A DNA stretch of 64,000 bases, from assembly GCF_024502345.1 (NCBI RefSeq), contig NZ_JALDNN010000001.1; one strand, 5' to 3'. The notes beneath the pieces were generated by a model. It was given only the letters and a program-made list of their open reading frames with translations, had not been told where the DNA came from and did no database searches. This DNA comes from Escherichia coli. Its GTDB lineage: Bacteria > Pseudomonadota > Gammaproteobacteria > Enterobacterales > Enterobacteriaceae. The stretch's first letter is position 1; each line of letters opens with the position of its first letter. The translations under genes were made by a program, and so were the position numbers. This document shows positions 48,846 to 64,000 of this stretch, in pieces.

Positions 48846-51695
48846 TTGAAATACCTTGCTTCTTTTCGTACAACCCTGAAAGCCTCGCGCTACATGTTCA
48901 GAGCATTGGCGTTAGTGCTCTGGCTGTTGATTGCTTTTTCATCCGTTTTTTACATCGTTAATGCGTTACATCAGCGAGAATCGGAAATTCGTCAGGAATT
49001 TAATCTGAGTTCCGATCAGGCTCAGCGCTTTATTCAACGCACCTCTGATGTGATGAAAGAGCTGAAGTACATCGCCGAAAATCGCTTATCGGCAGAAAAC
49101 GGTGTGCTTTCCCCGCGTGGACGAGAAACGCAGGCGGATGTGCCTGCGTTTGAACCGCTGTTTGCCGACTCCGATTGTTCAGCAATGAGTAACACCTGGC
49201 GAGGTTCTCTGGAGTCATTGGCGTGGTTTATGCGCTACTGGCGCGATAATTTTTCTGCGGCTTACGATCTCAATCGGGTATTTTTAATCGGCAGCGATAA
49301 CCTCTGCATGGCCAATTTCGGTCTGCGTGATATGCCAGTGGAACGCGATACCGCGTTGAAAGCGTTGCATGAACGCATCAATAAATATCGAAATGCACCA
49401 CAAGATGATAGCGGCAGTAACCTCTACTGGATCAGCGAAGGTCCGCGCCCTGGCGTCGGGTATTTTTACGCGTTGACGCCAGTTTATCTGGCGAACCGGT
49501 TGCAGGCGCTTTTGGGTGTCGAGCAGACCATCCGGATGGAGAATTTTTTCTTACCTGGTACGTTGCCGATGGGGGTTACCATTCTTGATGAAAATGGTCA
49601 TACCCTGATTTCGCTTACCGGACCAGAAAGCAAAATTAAGGGCGATCCTCGCTGGATGCAGGAACGCTCCTGGTTTGGCTATACGGAAGGGTTCCGGGAG
49701 CTGGTGCTGAAGAAAAATCTGCCACCCTCATCGCTAAGCATCGTTTATTCGGTGCCGGTTGATAAGGTGCTGGAACGCATTCGCATGTTGATCCTTAACG
49801 CAATTTTGCTGAATGTGCTTGCCGGAGCTGCATTGTTTACTCTCGCGCGGATGTACGAGCGGCGTATTTTCATTCCGGCGGAAAGCGACGCCCTGCGACT
49901 GGAAGAACATGAGCAGTTCAATCGCAAGATTGTCGCCTCCGCGCCAGTGGGTATCTGCATTTTGCGTACCGCTGATGGCGTCAATATTTTAAGTAACGAA
50001 CTGGCGCATACCTATCTCAATATGCTTACGCATGAGGACCGCCAACGACTGACGCAAATTATCTGTGGGCAGCAGGTCAATTTTGTTGATGTCCTGACCA
50101 GCAACAATACCAATCTGCAAATCAGCTTCGTCCATTCGCGCTATCGTAATGAAAACGTGGCCATTTGTGTGCTGGTGGATGTTTCTTCGCGCGTGAAGAT
50201 GGAAGAGTCGTTGCAGGAGATGGCACAAGCAGCGGAACAGGCGAGCCAGTCAAAATCGATGTTCCTTGCCACCGTCAGTCATGAGCTGCGAACGCCGCTG
50301 TATGGCATTATCGGTAACCTGGATCTGTTGCAAACCAAAGAGTTACCGAAAGGCGTCGATCGTCTGGTGACGGCAATGAACAACTCTTCCAGCCTGTTGT
50401 TGAAAATTATCAGCGATATTCTCGATTTCTCGAAGATTGAATCAGAACAGTTGAAGATCGAACCGCGTGAGTTTTCACCGCGTGAAGTGATGAACCACAT
50501 CACCGCCAACTATTTACCGCTGGTGGTACGCAAGCAGTTAGGCTTGTACTGCTTTATTGAACCGGATGTGCCAGTGGCTTTAAATGGCGACCCGATGCGT
50601 TTACAGCAGGTCATCTCCAACCTGTTGAGTAACGCCATAAAATTCACCGATACCGGCTGTATAGTTTTGCATGTTCGCGCTGATGGCGATTATCTCTCTA
50701 TCCGTGTTCGCGATACCGGCGTGGGGATACCGGCGAAAGAAGTGGTGCGCTTGTTTGATCCCTTCTTCCAGGTCGGAACGGGCGTACAGCGAAACTTCCA
50801 GGGGACCGGTCTGGGTCTGGCGATTTGTGAAAAACTGATCAGCATGATGGACGGCGACATCTCGGTAGATTCAGAACCGGGAATGGGCAGCCAGTTTACC
50901 GTGCGTATTCCGTTGTACGGCGCTCAGTACCCGCAGAAAAAAGGCGTGGAAGGGTTGAGTGGTAAACGCTGCTGGCTGGCGGTCCGCAATGCGTCGCTCT
51001 GTCAGTTCCTGGAAACCAGTTTGCAGCGCAGCGGCATCGTCGTAACAACATACGAAGGGCAGGAACCGACTCCCGAAGATGTGTTAATTACTGACGAGGT
51101 AGTGAGTAAAAAATGGCAGGGTAGAGCGGTAGTGACCTTCTGTCGTCGCCATATTGGTATTCCGCTGGAGAAAGCGCCAGGGGAGTGGGTACACAGTGTG
51201 GCTGCTCCGCATGAGCTACCGGCATTGTTGGCGCGTATTTATTTGATCGAGATGGAGAGCGACGATCCTGCTAACGCTCTGCCGTCGACGGACAAAGCGG
51301 TCAGCGATAATGACGATATGATGATTCTGGTCGTGGATGATCATCCGATTAACCGACGTCTGCTGGCAGATCAGTTGGGATCGTTGGGCTATCAATGTAA
51401 AACCGCGAATGATGGCGTCGATGCGCTTAATGTACTTAGCAAGAATCATATTGATATCGTGCTTAGCGACGTCAACATGCCAAATATGGATGGTTACCGC
51501 TTGACGCAACGCATTCGTCAGTTGGGACTGACGTTGCCGGTAATCGGAGTAACTGCTAATGCGTTGGCTGAAGAGAAGCAGCGGTGTCTGGAGTCCGGTA
51601 TGGACAGCTGCCTGTCGAAGCCGGTAACGCTGGATGTGATAAAACAGACGCTGACGGTATATGCCGAGAGGGTCAGGAAATCGCGGGAATCGTAG
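48846..51695 (+). CDS. rcsC: hybrid sensor histidine kinase RcsC (949 aa, TTG start)
   Basis: HisKA H-box SHELRTPLYGI, HATPase domain and C-terminal receiver (LVVDDHPINRRL...DVNMPNMDG). Confidence 0.96.
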   Translation: MKYLASFRTTLKASRYMFRALALVLWLLIAFSSVFYIVNALHQRESEIRQEFNLSSDQAQRFIQRTSDVMKELKYIAENRLSAENGVLSPRGRETQADVPAFEPLFADSDCSAMSNTWRGSLESLAWFMRYWRDNFSAAYDLNRVFLIGSDNLCMANFGLRDMPVERDTALKALHERINKYRNAPQDDSGSNLYWISEGPRPGVGYFYALTPVYLANRLQALLGVEQTIRMENFFLPGTLPMGVTILDENGHTLISLTGPESKIKGDPRWMQERSWFGYTEGFRELVLKKNLPPSSLSIVYSVPVDKVLERIRMLILNAILLNVLAGAALFTLARMYERRIFIPAESDALRLEEHEQFNRKIVASAPVGICILRTADGVNILSNELAHTYLNMLTHEDRQRLTQIICGQQVNFVDVLTSNNTNLQISFVHSRYRNENVAICVLVDVSSRVKMEESLQEMAQAAEQASQSKSMFLATVSHELRTPLYGIIGNLDLLQTKELPKGVDRLVTAMNNSSSLLLKIISDILDFSKIESEQLKIEPREFSPREVMNHITANYLPLVVRKQLGLYCFIEPDVPVALNGDPMRLQQVISNLLSNAIKFTDTGCIVLHVRADGDYLSIRVRDTGVGIPAKEVVRLFDPFFQVGTGVQRNFQGTGLGLAICEKLISMMDGDISVDSEPGMGSQFTVRIPLYGAQYPQKKGVEGLSGKRCWLAVRNASLCQFLETSLQRSGIVVTTYEGQEPTPEDVLITDEVVSKKWQGRAVVTFCRRHIGIPLEKAPGEWVHSVAAPHELPALLARIYLIEMESDDPANALPSTDKAVSDNDDMMILVVDDHPINRRLLADQLGSLGYQCKTANDGVDALNVLSKNHIDIVLSDVNMPNMDGYRLTQRIRQLGLTLPVIGVTANALAEEKQRCLESGMDSCLSKPVTLDVIKQTLTVYAERVRKSRES

Positions 51696-51893
51696 GACGG
51701 ATAAGGTGTTTATGCCGCATCCGGCATTCAGTGCAAATGCCAGATGCGACGCTGACGCGTCTTATCTGGCCTACTTTAATGTAATCTGTTGAAATAATGG
51801 GAATCGTAGGACGGATAAGGCGTTTACGCCGCATCCGGCAATCGGTGCAAATGCCAGATAAGACACTAACGCGTCTTATCTGGCCTACAGATG
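51685..51893. repeat. REP/BIME array between convergent rcsC and rcsB, organised as a 114-bp tandem duplication that includes the last 11 bp of rcsC
   Basis: GGGAATCGTAGGACGGATAAGG...GCCGCATCCGGCA...GCGTCTTATCTGGCCTAC occurs twice, starting at 51685 and 51799. Confidence 0.8.
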
Positions 51894-55545: not shown

Positions 55546-55638
55546 AAAAAAAACCGGATGCGAGGCATCCGGTTGAAATAGGGGTAAACAGACATTCAGA
55601 AATGAATGACGGTAATAAATAAAGTTAATGATGATAGC
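55546..55638 (-). ncRNA. micF: MicF small regulatory RNA (antisense regulator of ompF mRNA), including its intrinsic terminator
   Basis: Minus-strand sequence GCTATCATCATTAACTTTATTTATTACCGTCATTCATTTCTGAATGTCTGTTTACCCCTATTTCAACCGGATGCCTCGCATCCGGTTTTTTTT matches MicF as I recall it; divergent from ompC. Confidence 0.9.
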
Positions 55639-55793
55639 GGGAGATATTCTAGTTGCGAGTGAAGGTTTTGTTTTGACATTCAGTGCTGTCAAATACTTAA
55701 GAATAAGTTATTGATTTTAACCTTGAATTATTATTGCTTGATGTTAGGTGCTTATTTCGCCATTCCGTAATAATCTTAAAAAGTTCCCTTGCA

Positions 55794-57196: not shown

Positions 57197-58252
57197 ATGG
57201 AAATAAGCTTTACCCGCGTGGCACTGCTGGCTGCCGCGCTCTTCTTTGTTGGTTGCGATCAAAAACCACAACCCGCCAAAACCCACGCTACTGAAGTTAC
57301 CGTTCTTGAAGGCAAAACCATGGGTACCTTCTGGCGTGCCAGCATCCCGGGCATTGATGCCAAACGCAGTGCCGAACTTAAAGAAAAGATTCAGACCCAG
57401 CTGGACGCCGACGATCAGCTGCTTTCGACCTATAAAAAAGATTCCGCGCTGATGCGCTTTAACGACTCGCAAAGTTTGTCGCCGTGGCCGGTAAGTGAAG
57501 CGATGGCCGATATCGTCACCACCTCGCTGCGCATTGGCGCAAGGACCGATGGTGCGATGGATATAACCGTCGGGCCGCTGGTGAATCTGTGGGGCTTTGG
57601 CCCGGAACAACAGCCGGTTCAAATTCCGAGCCAGGAACAGATCGATGCGATGAAAGCCAAAACTGGTTTACAGCACCTTACGGTCATTAATCAGTCGCAT
57701 CAGCAATATCTGCAAAAAGACCTGCCGGATTTATATGTCGATCTCTCTACCGTCGGCGAAGGTTATGCGGCGGATCACCTGGCACGCTTGATGGAGCAGG
57801 AAGGGATTTCCCGCTATCTGGTGTCGGTGGGGGGCGCGCTGAACAGCCGTGGTATGAACGGTGAAGGCCAGCCGTGGCGGGTAGCGATTCAAAAGCCAAC
57901 CGATAAAGAAAATGCGGTTCAGGCCGTGGTGGATATCAACGGTCATGGTATTAGCACCTCTGGCAGCTACCGTAACTATTACGAACTGGACGGCAAACGT
58001 CTTTCCCATGTTATCGATCCGCAAACCGGGCGTCCCATCGAACACAATCTGGTATCCGTGACGGTGATTGCTCCGACGGCGCTGGAAGCCGATGCCTGGG
58101 ATACTGGCTTGATGGTACTCGGGCCGGAGAAAGCCAAAGAGGTTGTTCGCCGGGAAGGGCTGGCGGTTTATATGATCACCAAAGAAGGCGATAGCTTTAA
58201 AACCTGGATGTCACCACAGTTTAAAAGCTTCCTTGTCAGCGAAAAAAATTAA
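57197..58252 (+). CDS. apbE: FAD:protein FMN transferase ApbE, lipoprotein (351 aa)
   Basis: Lipoprotein signal with lipobox (LLAAALFFVGC); ApbE-family sequence; length 351 aa. Confidence 0.93.
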   Translation: MEISFTRVALLAAALFFVGCDQKPQPAKTHATEVTVLEGKTMGTFWRASIPGIDAKRSAELKEKIQTQLDADDQLLSTYKKDSALMRFNDSQSLSPWPVSEAMADIVTTSLRIGARTDGAMDITVGPLVNLWGFGPEQQPVQIPSQEQIDAMKAKTGLQHLTVINQSHQQYLQKDLPDLYVDLSTVGEGYAADHLARLMEQEGISRYLVSVGGALNSRGMNGEGQPWRVAIQKPTDKENAVQAVVDINGHGISTSGSYRNYYELDGKRLSHVIDPQTGRPIEHNLVSVTVIAPTALEADAWDTGLMVLGPEKAKEVVRREGLAVYMITKEGDSFKTWMSPQFKSFLVSEKN

Positions 58253-58258
58253 AGCGCA
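58246..58258 (+). promoter_or_regulatory. Ada box (AAATTAAAGCGCA) in the ada promoter, overlapping the apbE stop codon
   Basis: Matches the Ada-responsive element AAANNAAAGCGCA, 68-80 bp upstream of the ada ATG. Confidence 0.65.
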
Positions 58259-58325
58259 AGATTGTTGGTTTTTGCGTGATGGTGACCGGGCAGACTAAAG
58301 GCTATCCTTAACCAGGGAGCTGATT

Positions 58326-59390
58326 ATGAAAAAAGCCACATGCTTAACTGACGATCAACGCTGGCAATCTGTCTTAGCCCGCGACCCGAATGCCGACGGC
58401 GAATTCGTTTTCGCCGTGCGTACCACAGGCATCTTTTGCCGTCCGTCTTGCCGCGCCAGACATGCTTTGCGGGAAAACGTCTCCTTCTACGCAAATGCCA
58501 GCGAGGCACTCGCCGCTGGCTTTCGCCCCTGCAAACGTTGTCAGCCAGAAAAAGCCAATGCCCAGCAACATCGGTTGGATAAAATCACCCACGCGTGTCG
58601 ACTGCTGGAACAGGAAACGCCTGTAACGCTGGAAGCCTTAGCCGACCAGGTGGCGATGAGTCCATTTCATCTACATCGGTTGTTTAAAGCGACTACCGGA
58701 ATGACGCCTAAAGCCTGGCAACAGGCCTGGCGCGCTCGCCGTTTGCGCGAATCGCTGGCGAAAGGGGAGAGCGTGACGACGTCTATTCTTAACGCCGGAT
58801 TCCCCGACAGCAGCAGTTACTATCGCAAAGCTGACGAAACGCTGGGCATGACGGCTAAACAATTCCGTCACGGTGGCGAAAATCTGGCGGTGCGTTACGC
58901 GCTGGCTGATTGTGAGCTGGGTCGTTGCCTGGTGGCAGAAAGCGAGCGGGGGATTTGCGCGATATTGCTGGGCGATGATGACGCGACACTAATCAGCGAG
59001 TTGCAGCAGATGTTTCCCGCTGCCGACAACGCGCCTGCCGATCTGATGTTTCAGCAACATGTGCGTGAAGTGATCGCCAGCCTCAATCAACGCGATACGC
59101 CGCTGACGTTACCGCTGGACATTCGCGGCACTGCTTTTCAGCAACAAGTCTGGCAGGCACTGCGCACGATACCTTGCGGTGAAACCGTCAGTTATCAGCA
59201 ACTGGCTAACGCCATCGGCAAACCGAAAGCGGTACGGGCCGTTGCCAGCGCCTGTGCCGCCAACAAGCTGGCTATCATAATACCCTGTCATCGGGTGGTC
59301 CGTGGTGATGGCACACTTTCCGGTTACCGCTGGGGCGTGTCGCGTAAAGCGCAACTGCTGCGCCGCGAAGCTGAAAATGAGGAGAGGTAA
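58326..59390 (+). CDS. ada: bifunctional transcriptional activator / methylphosphotriester and O6-methylguanine-DNA methyltransferase Ada (354 aa)
   Basis: N-terminal Zn/Cys region (FCRPSCRAR), AraC-type HTH, and C-terminal methyl-acceptor motif PCHRV. Confidence 0.96.
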   Translation: MKKATCLTDDQRWQSVLARDPNADGEFVFAVRTTGIFCRPSCRARHALRENVSFYANASEALAAGFRPCKRCQPEKANAQQHRLDKITHACRLLEQETPVTLEALADQVAMSPFHLHRLFKATTGMTPKAWQQAWRARRLRESLAKGESVTTSILNAGFPDSSSYYRKADETLGMTAKQFRHGGENLAVRYALADCELGRCLVAESERGICAILLGDDDATLISELQQMFPAADNAPADLMFQQHVREVIASLNQRDTPLTLPLDIRGTAFQQQVWQALRTIPCGETVSYQQLANAIGKPKAVRAVASACAANKLAIIIPCHRVVRGDGTLSGYRWGVSRKAQLLRREAENEER

Positions 59391-60040
59391 TGTTGGATCT
59401 GTTTGCCGATGCTGAACCGTGGCAAGAGCCACTGGCGGCTGGAGCGGTAATTTTGCACCGTTTTGCTTTTAACGCTGCGGAGCAACTGATCCGCGATATT
59501 AATGACGTTGCCAGCCAGTCGCCGTTTCGCCAGATGGTCACCCCCGGGGGATATACCATGTCGGTGGCGATGACCAACTGTGGGCATCTGGGCTGGACGA
59601 GCCATCGGCAAGGTTATCTCTATTCGCCCATTGATCCGCAAACAAATAAACCGTGGCCCGCCATGCCACAGAGTTTTCATAATTTATGTCAACGTGCGGC
59701 TACGGCGGCGGGCTATCCAGATTTCCAGCCAGATGCTTGTCTTATCAACCGCTACGCTCCTGGCGCGAAACTGTCGCTGCATCAGGATAAAGACGAACCG
59801 GATCTGCGCGCGCCAATTGTTTCTGTTTCTCTGGGCTTACCCGCGATTTTTCAGTTTGGTGGCCTGAAACGTAATGATCCGCTCAAACGTTTGTTGTTGG
59901 AACATGGCGATGTGGTGATATGGGGCGGTGAATCGCGGCTGTTTTATCACGGTATTCAACCGTTGAAAGCGGGGTTTCATCCACTCACCACCGACTGCCG
60001 CTACAACCTGACATTCCGTCAGGCAGGTAAAAAAGAATAA
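59390..60040 (+). CDS. alkB: Fe(II)/2-oxoglutarate-dependent DNA/RNA alkylation repair dioxygenase AlkB (216 aa)
   Basis: Start overlaps the ada stop (TAATG); HxD iron-binding motif in LHQDKDE. Confidence 0.96.
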   Translation: MLDLFADAEPWQEPLAAGAVILHRFAFNAAEQLIRDINDVASQSPFRQMVTPGGYTMSVAMTNCGHLGWTSHRQGYLYSPIDPQTNKPWPAMPQSFHNLCQRAATAAGYPDFQPDACLINRYAPGAKLSLHQDKDEPDLRAPIVSVSLGLPAIFQFGGLKRNDPLKRLLLEHGDVVIWGGESRLFYHGIQPLKAGFHPLTTDCRYNLTFRQAGKKE

Positions 60041-60115
60041 AAATAAGAATTATTATTGCTGTGCGCGCGAAGATGTTTAAACTGCGGGCTGTAATTCATT
60101 GTCCGGGTTTTCTGC

Positions 60116-63660: not shown

Positions 63661-63665
63661 GTATG

Positions 63666-64000
63666 CTGATAAGACGCGCCAGCGTCGCATCAGGCAACCG
63701 GCTCGGGCGTTAGATGTCGGATGCGGCGTGACCGCCTTATCCGACCTACGGGGTGGAGCACTTCACAGCGGTGTAGGCCTGATAAGACGCGTCAGCGTCG
63801 CATCAGGCAACCGGCTCGGACGTTGGATGTCGGATGCGGCGTAACCGCCTTATCCGACCTACGGGGTGGAGCACTTCACAGCGGTGTAGGCCTGATAAGA
63901 CGCGTCAGCGTCGCATCAGGCAACCGGCTCGGACGTTGGATGTCGGATGCGGCGTAACCGACTTATTCGACCTACGGGGTGGAGCACTTCACAGCGGCGT
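63666..64000. repeat. BIME-type REP array: at least three tandem copies of a 113-bp unit, continuing beyond the window end
   Basis: Unit starts at 63666, 63779 and 63892; each contains REP palindromes (CTGATAAGACGCG(C/T)CAGCGTCGCATCAGGC, GGATGCGGCGT(A/G)ACCGCCTTATCCGACCTAC); explains the duplicated small ORFs in the six-frame track. Confidence 0.85.

Follow-up and report, generated by a model that had tools for sequence, protein, structure and literature searches.

In the window, by which we mean the whole 64,000-nucleotide stretch of Escherichia coli DNA that was analysed, the Ada site in front of ada straddles the stop codon of the upstream gene apbE: AAT is both the A box of the site and the last codon (Asn) of apbE, while TAA ends the gene and at the same time forms the first three of the six spacer bases. 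Because it serves both ends, AATTAA has stayed frozen across the Enterobacteriaceae. We are highly confident that the locus holds the well-studied promoter through which Ada activates ada-alkB, the adaptive-response operon of E. coli that turns on repair of alkylated DNA. All three, Ada box, promoter and operon, have been in the textbooks since the 1980s; here they are real, conserved in related bacteria and already known. The new part lies in the comparative results, namely the fixed gene order, the frozen A box and stop codon, and the retained 1-nt overlap between ada and alkB. Coordinates are collected in Table 1.

Of 5426 complete E. coli genomes, 5421 carried the chromosomal region ompC-apbE-ada-alkB-yojI. 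The gene ends from our ORF calls for apbE, ada and alkB agreed with the RefSeq annotation of a 100%-identical genome, and the neighbour downstream of alkB is annotated as yojI. It is the same locus, with the same flanking genes, as ada-alkB of K-12 (b2213-b2212). The promoter was identical to that of K-12 at 160/161 bases and the ada/alkB junction at 81/81; the single promoter difference, A at 58294 in the window and C in K-12, lies 2 bases upstream of the putative -10. Both 93-nt promoter alleles are common, the window version being found identically in 1778 and the K-12 version in 1185 of the 5421 genomes. Ada matched its K-12 counterpart in 354/354 residues, while AlkB differed in 4 residues and ApbE in 2.

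Ada repairs methylphosphotriesters and thereby becomes methylated at Cys38; the methylated N-terminal domain binds AAT-N6-GCAA, and RNA polymerase is thereby brought to the adjacent downstream core promoter, which is weak. The Ada of the window carries C38, C42, C69 and C72 plus R45, R71, F114, H115, R118 and C321, so that the zinc site with the methyl-acceptor Cys38 and the box-reading residues R45, R71, F114, H115 and R118 are complete. In 73 orthologues C38, R71, H115 and R118 were invariant, position 45 was R or K, and position 114 was F, Y or W. AlkB has its H131, D133 and H187 in place.

Table 1. Features of the apbE-ada-alkB region, in window positions.
Feature	Sequence	Position	Strand	Remarks
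apbE (ftp)		57197..58252	+	FAD:protein FMN transferase; ORF, Pfam ApbE 6e-84, RefSeq annotation
Classic "Ada box"	AAATTAAAGCGCA	58246..58258	+	Identical in K-12
Ada site, modern form AAT-N6-GCAA	AATTAAAGCGCAA	58247..58259	+	A box 58247-58249, B box 58256-58259
Conserved block	GATTGTTGGTTTTT	58260..58273	+	Consensus GATTGCGGGTTTTT; between B box and -35
Putative -35 hexamer	TTGCGT	58272..58277	+	
Putative -10 hexamer (block 2)	TAAAGG	58296..58301	+	18 nt after -35; inferred assignment
Conserved block 3	CTATCCTTAA	58302..58311	+	TA..CT invariant
Probable ada transcription start		58307..58308	+	Approximate; geometry from -10
ada Shine-Dalgarno (SD)	GGGAG	58315..58319	+	GGAG conserved
ada		58326..59390	+	354 aa; Ada Zn-binding, AraC HTH and O6-MeG methyltransferase domains
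alkB SD	GAGGAGAGG	59379..59387	+	Within the last ada codons
ada stop/alkB start	TAATG	59388..59392	+	Common A
alkB		59390..60040	+	216 aa; Fe(II)/2-oxoglutarate DNA demethylase

The preliminary description had placed the start of the Ada box AAATTAAAGCGCA in the last codons of apbE, and this was read directly from the DNA: the box at 58246-58258 spans the TAA stop at 58250-58252, where the 3' end of apbE reads ...GAA AAA AAT TAA, so that 4 of its bases are coding, 3 are the stop and 6 are intergenic. The additional claim that the ada promoter is embedded in the end of apbE holds for its upstream edge, the A box and the stop. B box, -35 and -10 all fall within the 73 nt between the apbE stop and the ada ATG at 58326, which makes "embedded" an overstatement. 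The Ada site has been defined as A box AAT plus B box GCAA (PMC4437013, PMC3788762). A tiling-array paper gives AATTAAAGCGCAA as the Ada site of ada, 66 nt upstream of the gene (PMC6505713), which is exactly the gap 58260-58325 in the window.

Conservation was surveyed at species level within the Enterobacteriaceae, on the best 80 loci from one genome-collection scan. Gene order at the locus was the same in 80/80 of these loci, and in 78/80 the last sense codon of apbE was AAT (Asn, 58247-58249 in the window), coinciding with the A box, with TAA beginning the spacer. Among 78 distinct sequences, the A-box AAT was retained in 77 and the apbE TAA in all 78, with no synonymous or stop-codon variation, and entropy was zero at AT-TAA-A and at GCAAG of the Ada site. 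In contrast, the stop codon of the next gene, ada, drifts (TAA 53, TGA 22, TAG 4), as do neighbouring synonymous sites, other two-fold codons being split about 50:50. What is conserved is AAT-N6-GCAA and not the older AAAGCGCA, which was kept in only 10 of the best 80 species loci; the base directly 5' of the B box is A, not C, in most of them, and A at this place is reported to lower Ada affinity about 10-fold (PMC3788762).

The motif by itself proves little. The strict pattern AAANNAAAGCGCA matched once in the 64-kb window (both strands) versus 0.08 matches expected, and 8 of 100 shuffles had one. AAT-N6-GCAA was not enriched in the window (14 found versus 16.5 expected) and is thus useless as stand-alone evidence. 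The meaning of the site therefore rests on its position, on the near-identity to the characterised K-12 promoter and on conservation. The promoter sequence as such had no match in a full-text literature search, and a search on the apbE/ada overlap returned nothing relevant.

Conservation of these bases for the sake of apbE itself was considered, the need being an essential C-terminal Asn, an efficient TAA stop or, with GCAAG...GGTTTTT, an intrinsic terminator. An A-tract, the short palindrome GCAAGATTGC and a T-run do bear a superficial likeness to a terminator, and no other terminator lies downstream of apbE. The predicted hairpins, however, have little stability and differ from sequence to sequence (stem usually 3 bp, median MFE -7 kcal/mol, median z -0.57), and the residues ahead of the terminal Asn are free to vary (SEKN, SGKN, REQN, GEPN). 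In locus L080, moreover, an in-frame TAG ends apbE two codons earlier with AATTAAAGCGCAAG still intact, and the AATTAA and GCAAG bases have been published as Ada contacts (PMC4437013, PMC3788762). An explanation from the needs of apbE is thus largely refuted, and we give it hardly any credence. With the bases attributed to Ada, the six-base stretch is a codon, a stop codon and an activator site at once, a clean small example that is frozen across a bacterial family.

Downstream of the B box, the GATTGTTGGTTTTT block showed a column conservation of at least 80-95% in 66 distinct sequences and is probably the rest of the Ada/alpha-CTD contact region. TTGCGT is taken here as the putative -35 hexamer. 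The spacing between the B-box end and the first position of this hexamer was 13 nt in 66/66 sequences, with T at that position in 65/66. The first T of block 2 was invariant and lay 37 nt from the B box in 65/66 sequences, with the normally essential A at position 2 of this hexamer missing in many genera. A simple sigma-70 scan between apbE and ada revealed no site at a threshold of 9/12 matches, in keeping with a weak core promoter; TAAAGG is weak as a -10, as expected of an activator-dependent promoter.

The apbE segment in the tiling-array data ends at U00096.2 position 2308447, corresponding to about 58306 in the window, at a resolution of 7-14 nt; for this conversion we assumed a 1978-nt offset between the K-12 coordinate versions, based on the old ada coordinates. 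An ada start near 58307 fits both the conserved spacing and this boundary. With a start at ~58306, the value given by the boundary, the Ada site would lie at about -61 to -49. At promoters of the ada/aidB type, the Ada site is described as lying roughly 60 to 40 bp upstream of the start, and the published Ada footprint reportedly extends from -63 to -31.

Block 3 offers another candidate for the -10, TATCCT at 58303-58308, with a start near 58315, a leader of ~12 nt and the Ada site at about -68 to -56. All 66 distinct sequences share TA..CT of block 3, whose hexamers (TATGCT, TACACT, TATCCT) come nearer to the consensus than block 2. Yet TATCCT lies 43, 44, 50 or 54 nt from the Ada box, against a constant 37 nt for block 2, and such variation counts against TATCCT because a promoter that depends on an activator requires a constant geometry. 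So does the end of the tiling-array segment at ~58306; with a start at ~58315, moreover, the A box would fall outside both the reported footprint and a site 60 to 40 bp upstream. We therefore regard this assignment as highly improbable and retain block 2 as the putative -10. Under both plausible starts, the Ada box is located upstream of -45, so that neither start is at odds with the box position given in the preliminary description. The position of block 3 is tied to the SD and ATG, not to the Ada box. A role of block 3 as an anti-SD hairpin was discarded, given that inspection by eye revealed no consistent SD pairing across genera. An Rfam search on two loci with ~155-nt leader insertions returned no family.

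With block 2 as -10, methylated Ada at 58247-58259 would direct polymerase to the -35 TTGCGT and the -10 TAAAGG, and transcription would start near 58307, giving a single mRNA with ada and alkB and, after induction, probably also yojI. A fragment of the ada promoter from -100 to -1 was inducible by MMS and MNNG, strongly so by MMS (PMC3788762), and ada was induced by +1.76 log2 upon MNNG treatment (PMC6505713).

At the other end of ada, the TAATG overlap of the preliminary description was confirmed at 59388-59392, the ada TAA (59388-59390) and the alkB ATG (59390-59392) having 1 nt in common. Both genes are on the same strand and the same transcript, ada-alkB being one Ada-induced operon (PMC8643705). 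The 1-nt overlap, as TAATG or TGATG, was kept in 72/80 of the best 80 species loci; its retention, whichever of TAA and TGA serves as the stop, suggests that the geometry of the junction is under selection. The overlap is consistent with translational coupling of ada and alkB, proposed earlier for this junction, and such coupling is plausible. Translation of alkB would begin at an AUG whose A also belongs to the ada UAA, with a strong SD ahead of it among the last ada codons; ribosomes ending ada can probably restart there, and free ribosomes probably load directly too. A literature search on ada/alkB translational coupling returned nothing relevant and no experiment.

Alternatively, alkB may be translated mainly via independent ribosome loading at its own SD, TAATG reflecting compact operon packing. 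The alkB SD is indeed strong, with an anti-SD duplex energy of about -9 kcal/mol, and conserved, an SD-like tetramer occurring 6-11 nt before the alkB start in 77/79 loci and within 20 nt in 78/79. No stable RNA structure hiding the SD or AUG was found, the fold of 59330-59450 being no better than shuffles (z -0.69), and basal AlkB is reported to be scarcer than basal Ada (PMC8643705). In addition, the junction is TAGCGATG in Salmonella arizonae/diarizonae and TAAATG in E. albertii, and these, like a few further species, have no overlap; several species without it still have both genes. Against this stands the retention of the overlap despite stop-codon switching, and the two routes are not mutually exclusive. 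Predominantly independent loading is a possibility that we take seriously but consider less likely than not; restarting by ribosomes that have ended ada, with direct loading beside it, is the reading that we prefer.

As a discovery, the locus carries little weight, the window containing the textbook system essentially unchanged. An intrinsic apbE terminator was rejected: a terminator scan was without match, the region gave z -0.44, and stems were weak and inconsistent in 57 distinct sequences. Without a terminator, transcription from apbE would continue past the Ada site and into ada-alkB. The stochastic adaptive-response switch is seeded by about one Ada molecule per cell, which this read-through could provide. 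CTATCCTTAA, for its part, could act as a second promoter, independent of Ada and possibly served by sigma-S, or as a leader element setting basal or stationary-phase ada expression. That the apbE/ada junction goes beyond the textbook in either of these ways, by read-through for basal Ada or through block 3, is in our view unlikely. The missing terminator and the unexplained block 3 are of interest because the source of basal Ada bears on current single-cell work on stochastic induction.

Among the other promoters of the Ada regulon in E. coli, that of aidB, a gene outside the window, is arranged as at ada, with AAT-N6-GCAA upstream of the -35. Both alpha-CTD and sigma of RNA polymerase take part in its activation (PMC4437013, PMC3788762), and it, too, has A instead of C just 5' of the B box, with the reported ~10-fold lower Ada affinity (PMC3788762). 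The alkA promoter responds to the same regulator through a related box, AAAGCAA, listed as AATATGAAAGCAA in PMC6505713, but there the core promoter is nearer to the Ada site and polymerase is contacted in another way (PMC4437013); alkA itself stands apart, ~160 kb away and outside the window. The Salmonella ada locus shares with E. coli the order apbE-ada-alkB and the overlap of stop and A box, and its published box GAATTAAAACGCA (PMC3788762) matches loci L025 and L026 of our survey. It differs in the ada/alkB junction, which is TAGCGATG without overlap, in an extra 10 nt inserted after block 2 and ahead of block 3, and in its Ada, which is reported to be a weaker activator (PMC3788762).

Read directly from the sequence, the Ada box lies across the apbE stop codon exactly where the preliminary description had placed it, and the TAATG overlap of ada and alkB is likewise exact; all gene ends agree with the ORF listing and with the RefSeq annotation in a genome that is 100% identical. 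The ada promoter had also been described as embedded in the end of apbE, which holds for its upstream edge; the rest lies outside the gene. The 64-kb window contains a single copy of the 13-mer pattern AAANNAAAGCGCA, where 0.08 would be expected. The core motif AAT-N6-GCAA (A box AAT, B box GCAA) showed no enrichment in the window (14 observed, 16.5 expected), so that by itself it carries little weight.

Features of the apbE-ada-alkB region and its neighbourhood (window coordinates)
Feature	Coordinates	Strand	Remarks
apbE	57197-58252	+	tail GAA AAA AAT TAA; stop 58250-58252
Ada box AAATTAAAGCGCA	58246-58258		spans 4 coding bases, stop, 6 intergenic bases
Block 1			A/B box and GATTGCGGGTTTTT, then TTG opening a -35-like hexamer (E. 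coli TTGCGT, 58272-58277)
Block 2			CA..CT; T is first base of E. coli TAAAGG (58296-58301)
Block 3	58302-58311		TA..CT (E. coli CTATCCTTAA); TA..CT invariant in 66 distinct sequences
ada ATG	58326		73 nt past apbE stop, 6 nt past GGGAG Shine-Dalgarno (SD)
TAATG	59388-59392		ada TAA (59388-59390) and alkB ATG (59390-59392), one A in common
naRNA4-type (REP/BIME-like) repeats, two copies	51695-51885	+	
MicF antisense sRNA	55546-55639	-	Rfam 116.8 bits; divergent from ompC, as this locus predicts
naRNA4-type (REP/BIME-like) repeats, three copies	63664-63972	-	immediately downstream of mqo

A species-representative genome collection was scanned once with Ada, and the best 80 loci (Ada identity 64-96%; Escherichia, Citrobacter, Salmonella, Enterobacter, Klebsiella, Raoultella, Kluyvera, Kosakonia, Leclercia, Lelliottia, Trabulsiella and others) were compared. 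The gene order apbE-ada-alkB was found in all 80, and AAT-N6-GCAA begins exactly 3 nt upstream of the apbE stop in 78, the exceptions being one locus reading CAT TAA (L036) and one with a frameshifted apbE, where the motif is still present (L082). Of 78 distinct apbE tails, 77 have AAT as the final codon and all have TAA as the stop, with zero entropy over AT-TAA-A and GCAAG. These genomes end ada with TAA (53), TGA (22) or TAG (4), use TTT and TTC about equally for the Phe codons of apbE, and vary in the ApbE residues immediately preceding the terminal Asn. A natural case of the motif being retained even where non-coding is the locus labelled Escherichia sp. ESNIH1 (L080), in which an in-frame TAG makes apbE two codons shorter (...QSK*N*) and AATTAAAGCGCAAG is unchanged. 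The frozen AAT-TAA beside these drifting positions, together with this locus, therefore places the constraint in the Ada site, not in ApbE.

The spacer of the site is variable among the 80 loci (AATTAAAAAGCAA in 54, AATTAAAGCGCAA in only 10, mostly Escherichia), and the older box AAAGCGCA is therefore not the conserved unit. At the position equivalent to 58254-58255, most genera carry AATTAAAAAGCAA, with A and not C directly 5' of the B box; an A there has been reported to weaken Ada binding about 10-fold. The C variant AAAGCGCAA is confined to 10 loci, mostly Escherichia; in 8 further loci the C is part of a different spacer (ACGCAA or CCGCAA). The window Ada has the zinc/methyl-acceptor cysteines C38, C42, C69, C72 and C321, the A-box readers R45 and R71 and the B-box readers F114, H115 and R118 (roles as reported in PMC3788762). 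The 73 Ada orthologues from the 80 loci show no change at C38, R71, H115, R118 or C321; Lys replaces R45 in 18 of them, and F114 is replaced by Tyr in 28 and by Trp in 1.

Alignment of 66 distinct Enterobacteriaceae promoter sequences revealed three conserved blocks. Measured from the B box, the first T of the -35-like hexamer lies 13 nt away in all 66 and the block-2 T 37 nt away in 65; together with the Ada box, the -35 and block 2 thus make up one rigid unit, as would be expected of an activator-dependent promoter. Length variation is confined to the region downstream of block 2. Block 3, which resembles a -10 hexamer, is unlikely to be the true -10 of the Ada-dependent promoter, because it is found at varying distances from the Ada box (43, 44, 50 or 54 nt); it lies 14 nt from the ada SD in 63 of the 66 sequences. 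With TAAAGG as -10, transcription would start near 58307-58308 and the Ada site would fall at about -61 to -49. The DNase footprint of methylated Ada has been reported to span -63 to -31, and descriptions of the Ada site place it between 60 and 40 bp upstream of the transcription start. A simple sigma-70 scan found no promoter between apbE and ada, which is consistent with a core promoter dependent on Ada. Block 3, which resembles the sigma-S extended -10 consensus, would straddle the inferred +1 and may represent either a second promoter or a leader element.

Inserts of about 155 nt separate block 3 from the ada SD in Klebsiella indica and Citrobacter sedlakii (L079 2338-2465; L024); in both species the Ada box keeps its place at the apbE stop. 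That of L079 has 20-nt terminal inverted repeats and a MITE-like appearance; no Rfam family matched either insert. In two Salmonella loci (L025, L026), blocks 2 and 3 are separated by an additional 10 nt. A weak adaptive response has been reported for Salmonella.

An apbE terminator within block 1 was rejected, there being no scan match, a z of -0.44 and weak, inconsistent stems in 57 distinct sequences. Neither scan nor folding gave an intrinsic terminator in the apbE-ada interval (58253-58325). A published tiling-array transcript segment of apbE ends at U00096.2 2308447, corresponding to about 58306 (close to the start expected with TAAAGG as -10) at 7-14 nt resolution if the offset between K-12 coordinate versions is 1978 nt, which we assume from old ada coordinates. 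Transcripts of apbE may therefore enter ada-alkB, and such read-through may contribute to basal Ada. An Escherichia-specific inverted repeat (58253-58277) pairs the B-box region GCGCAA with the -35 hexamer TTGCGT in a predicted 8-bp RNA helix (z about -2); it is absent from other genera, and no T-run follows the helix.

The 1-nt overlap of ada and alkB is present in 72 of the 80 loci, as TAATG in 52 and TGATG in 20, and selection on the junction is suggested by this geometry staying while the stop codon changes. The overlap is lost in Salmonella enterica subsp. arizonae and diarizonae (L025, L026; TAGCGATG) and in L008, L064 and L076, the junctions without overlap also including TAAATG in E. 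albertii and TGATCGTG and TAGTTATG in others. Of 79 loci, 77 have an SD-like tetramer 6-11 nt upstream of the alkB start codon and 78 have one somewhere within 20 nt; the median predicted anti-SD pairing energy is -9.1 kcal/mol. The co-translation proposed in the preliminary description would plausibly proceed through termination and restart; independent ribosome loading at alkB is equally possible. Structure-dependent coupling is not supported, as RNA folding around the junction was no better than shuffles (z -0.69). The overlap was reportedly remarked upon in the 1986 alkB sequence paper, and a literature search found no paper testing translational coupling of the two genes.

Downstream, the alkB-yojI interval (60041-60115) has no plus-strand terminator-like site, and ada, alkB and yojI formed a single MNNG-induced transcript in the tiling-array study (PMC6505713); the induced operon may therefore run on into yojI, the gene for microcin J25 efflux.

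Of 5426 complete E. coli genomes, 5421 matched the 3-kb region, which is chromosomal in every one and annotated apbE, ada, alkB and yojI. Pfam domains were ApbE; Ada zinc, AraC-type HTH and two methyltransferase domains; and 2OG-Fe(II) oxygenase. The K-12 MG1655 counterparts (b2214 (ftp/apbE), b2213, b2212, b2211) lie on the opposite strand. Ada is identical (354/354 residues), the ada/alkB junction shows no differences, and the promoter has 1 mismatch in 161 bases, at 58294 (A in the window, C in K-12); results on the K-12 promoter therefore hold for the window. Position 58294, 2 bases upstream of the putative -10, is A in all other Escherichia species loci. Among the 5421 genomes, the 93-nt promoter allele of the window is identical in 1778 and that of K-12 in 1185.

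According to reviews, the A box and B box are common to the ada, alkA and aidB promoters. The tiling-array study gives AATTAAAGCGCAA (spacer of 6 nt) as lying 66 nt from the start of ada, a gap that is exactly 58260-58325 in the window, and MNNG induced ada by +1.76 log2 (PMC6505713). A reporter carrying -100 to -1 relative to the ada ATG, i.e., 58226-58325 including the final 27 nt of apbE, was strongly induced by MMS and MNNG (PMC3788762), and ada and alkB are handled throughout as a single operon (PMC8643705; PMC2753364). The initial reading of the ada promoter is supported, with the caveats that the upstream promoter edge alone is inside apbE and that coupling is unproven. The Ada box and the ada-alkB arrangement are already known, and our additions are limited to the frozen AAT-TAA and the unexplained block 3.
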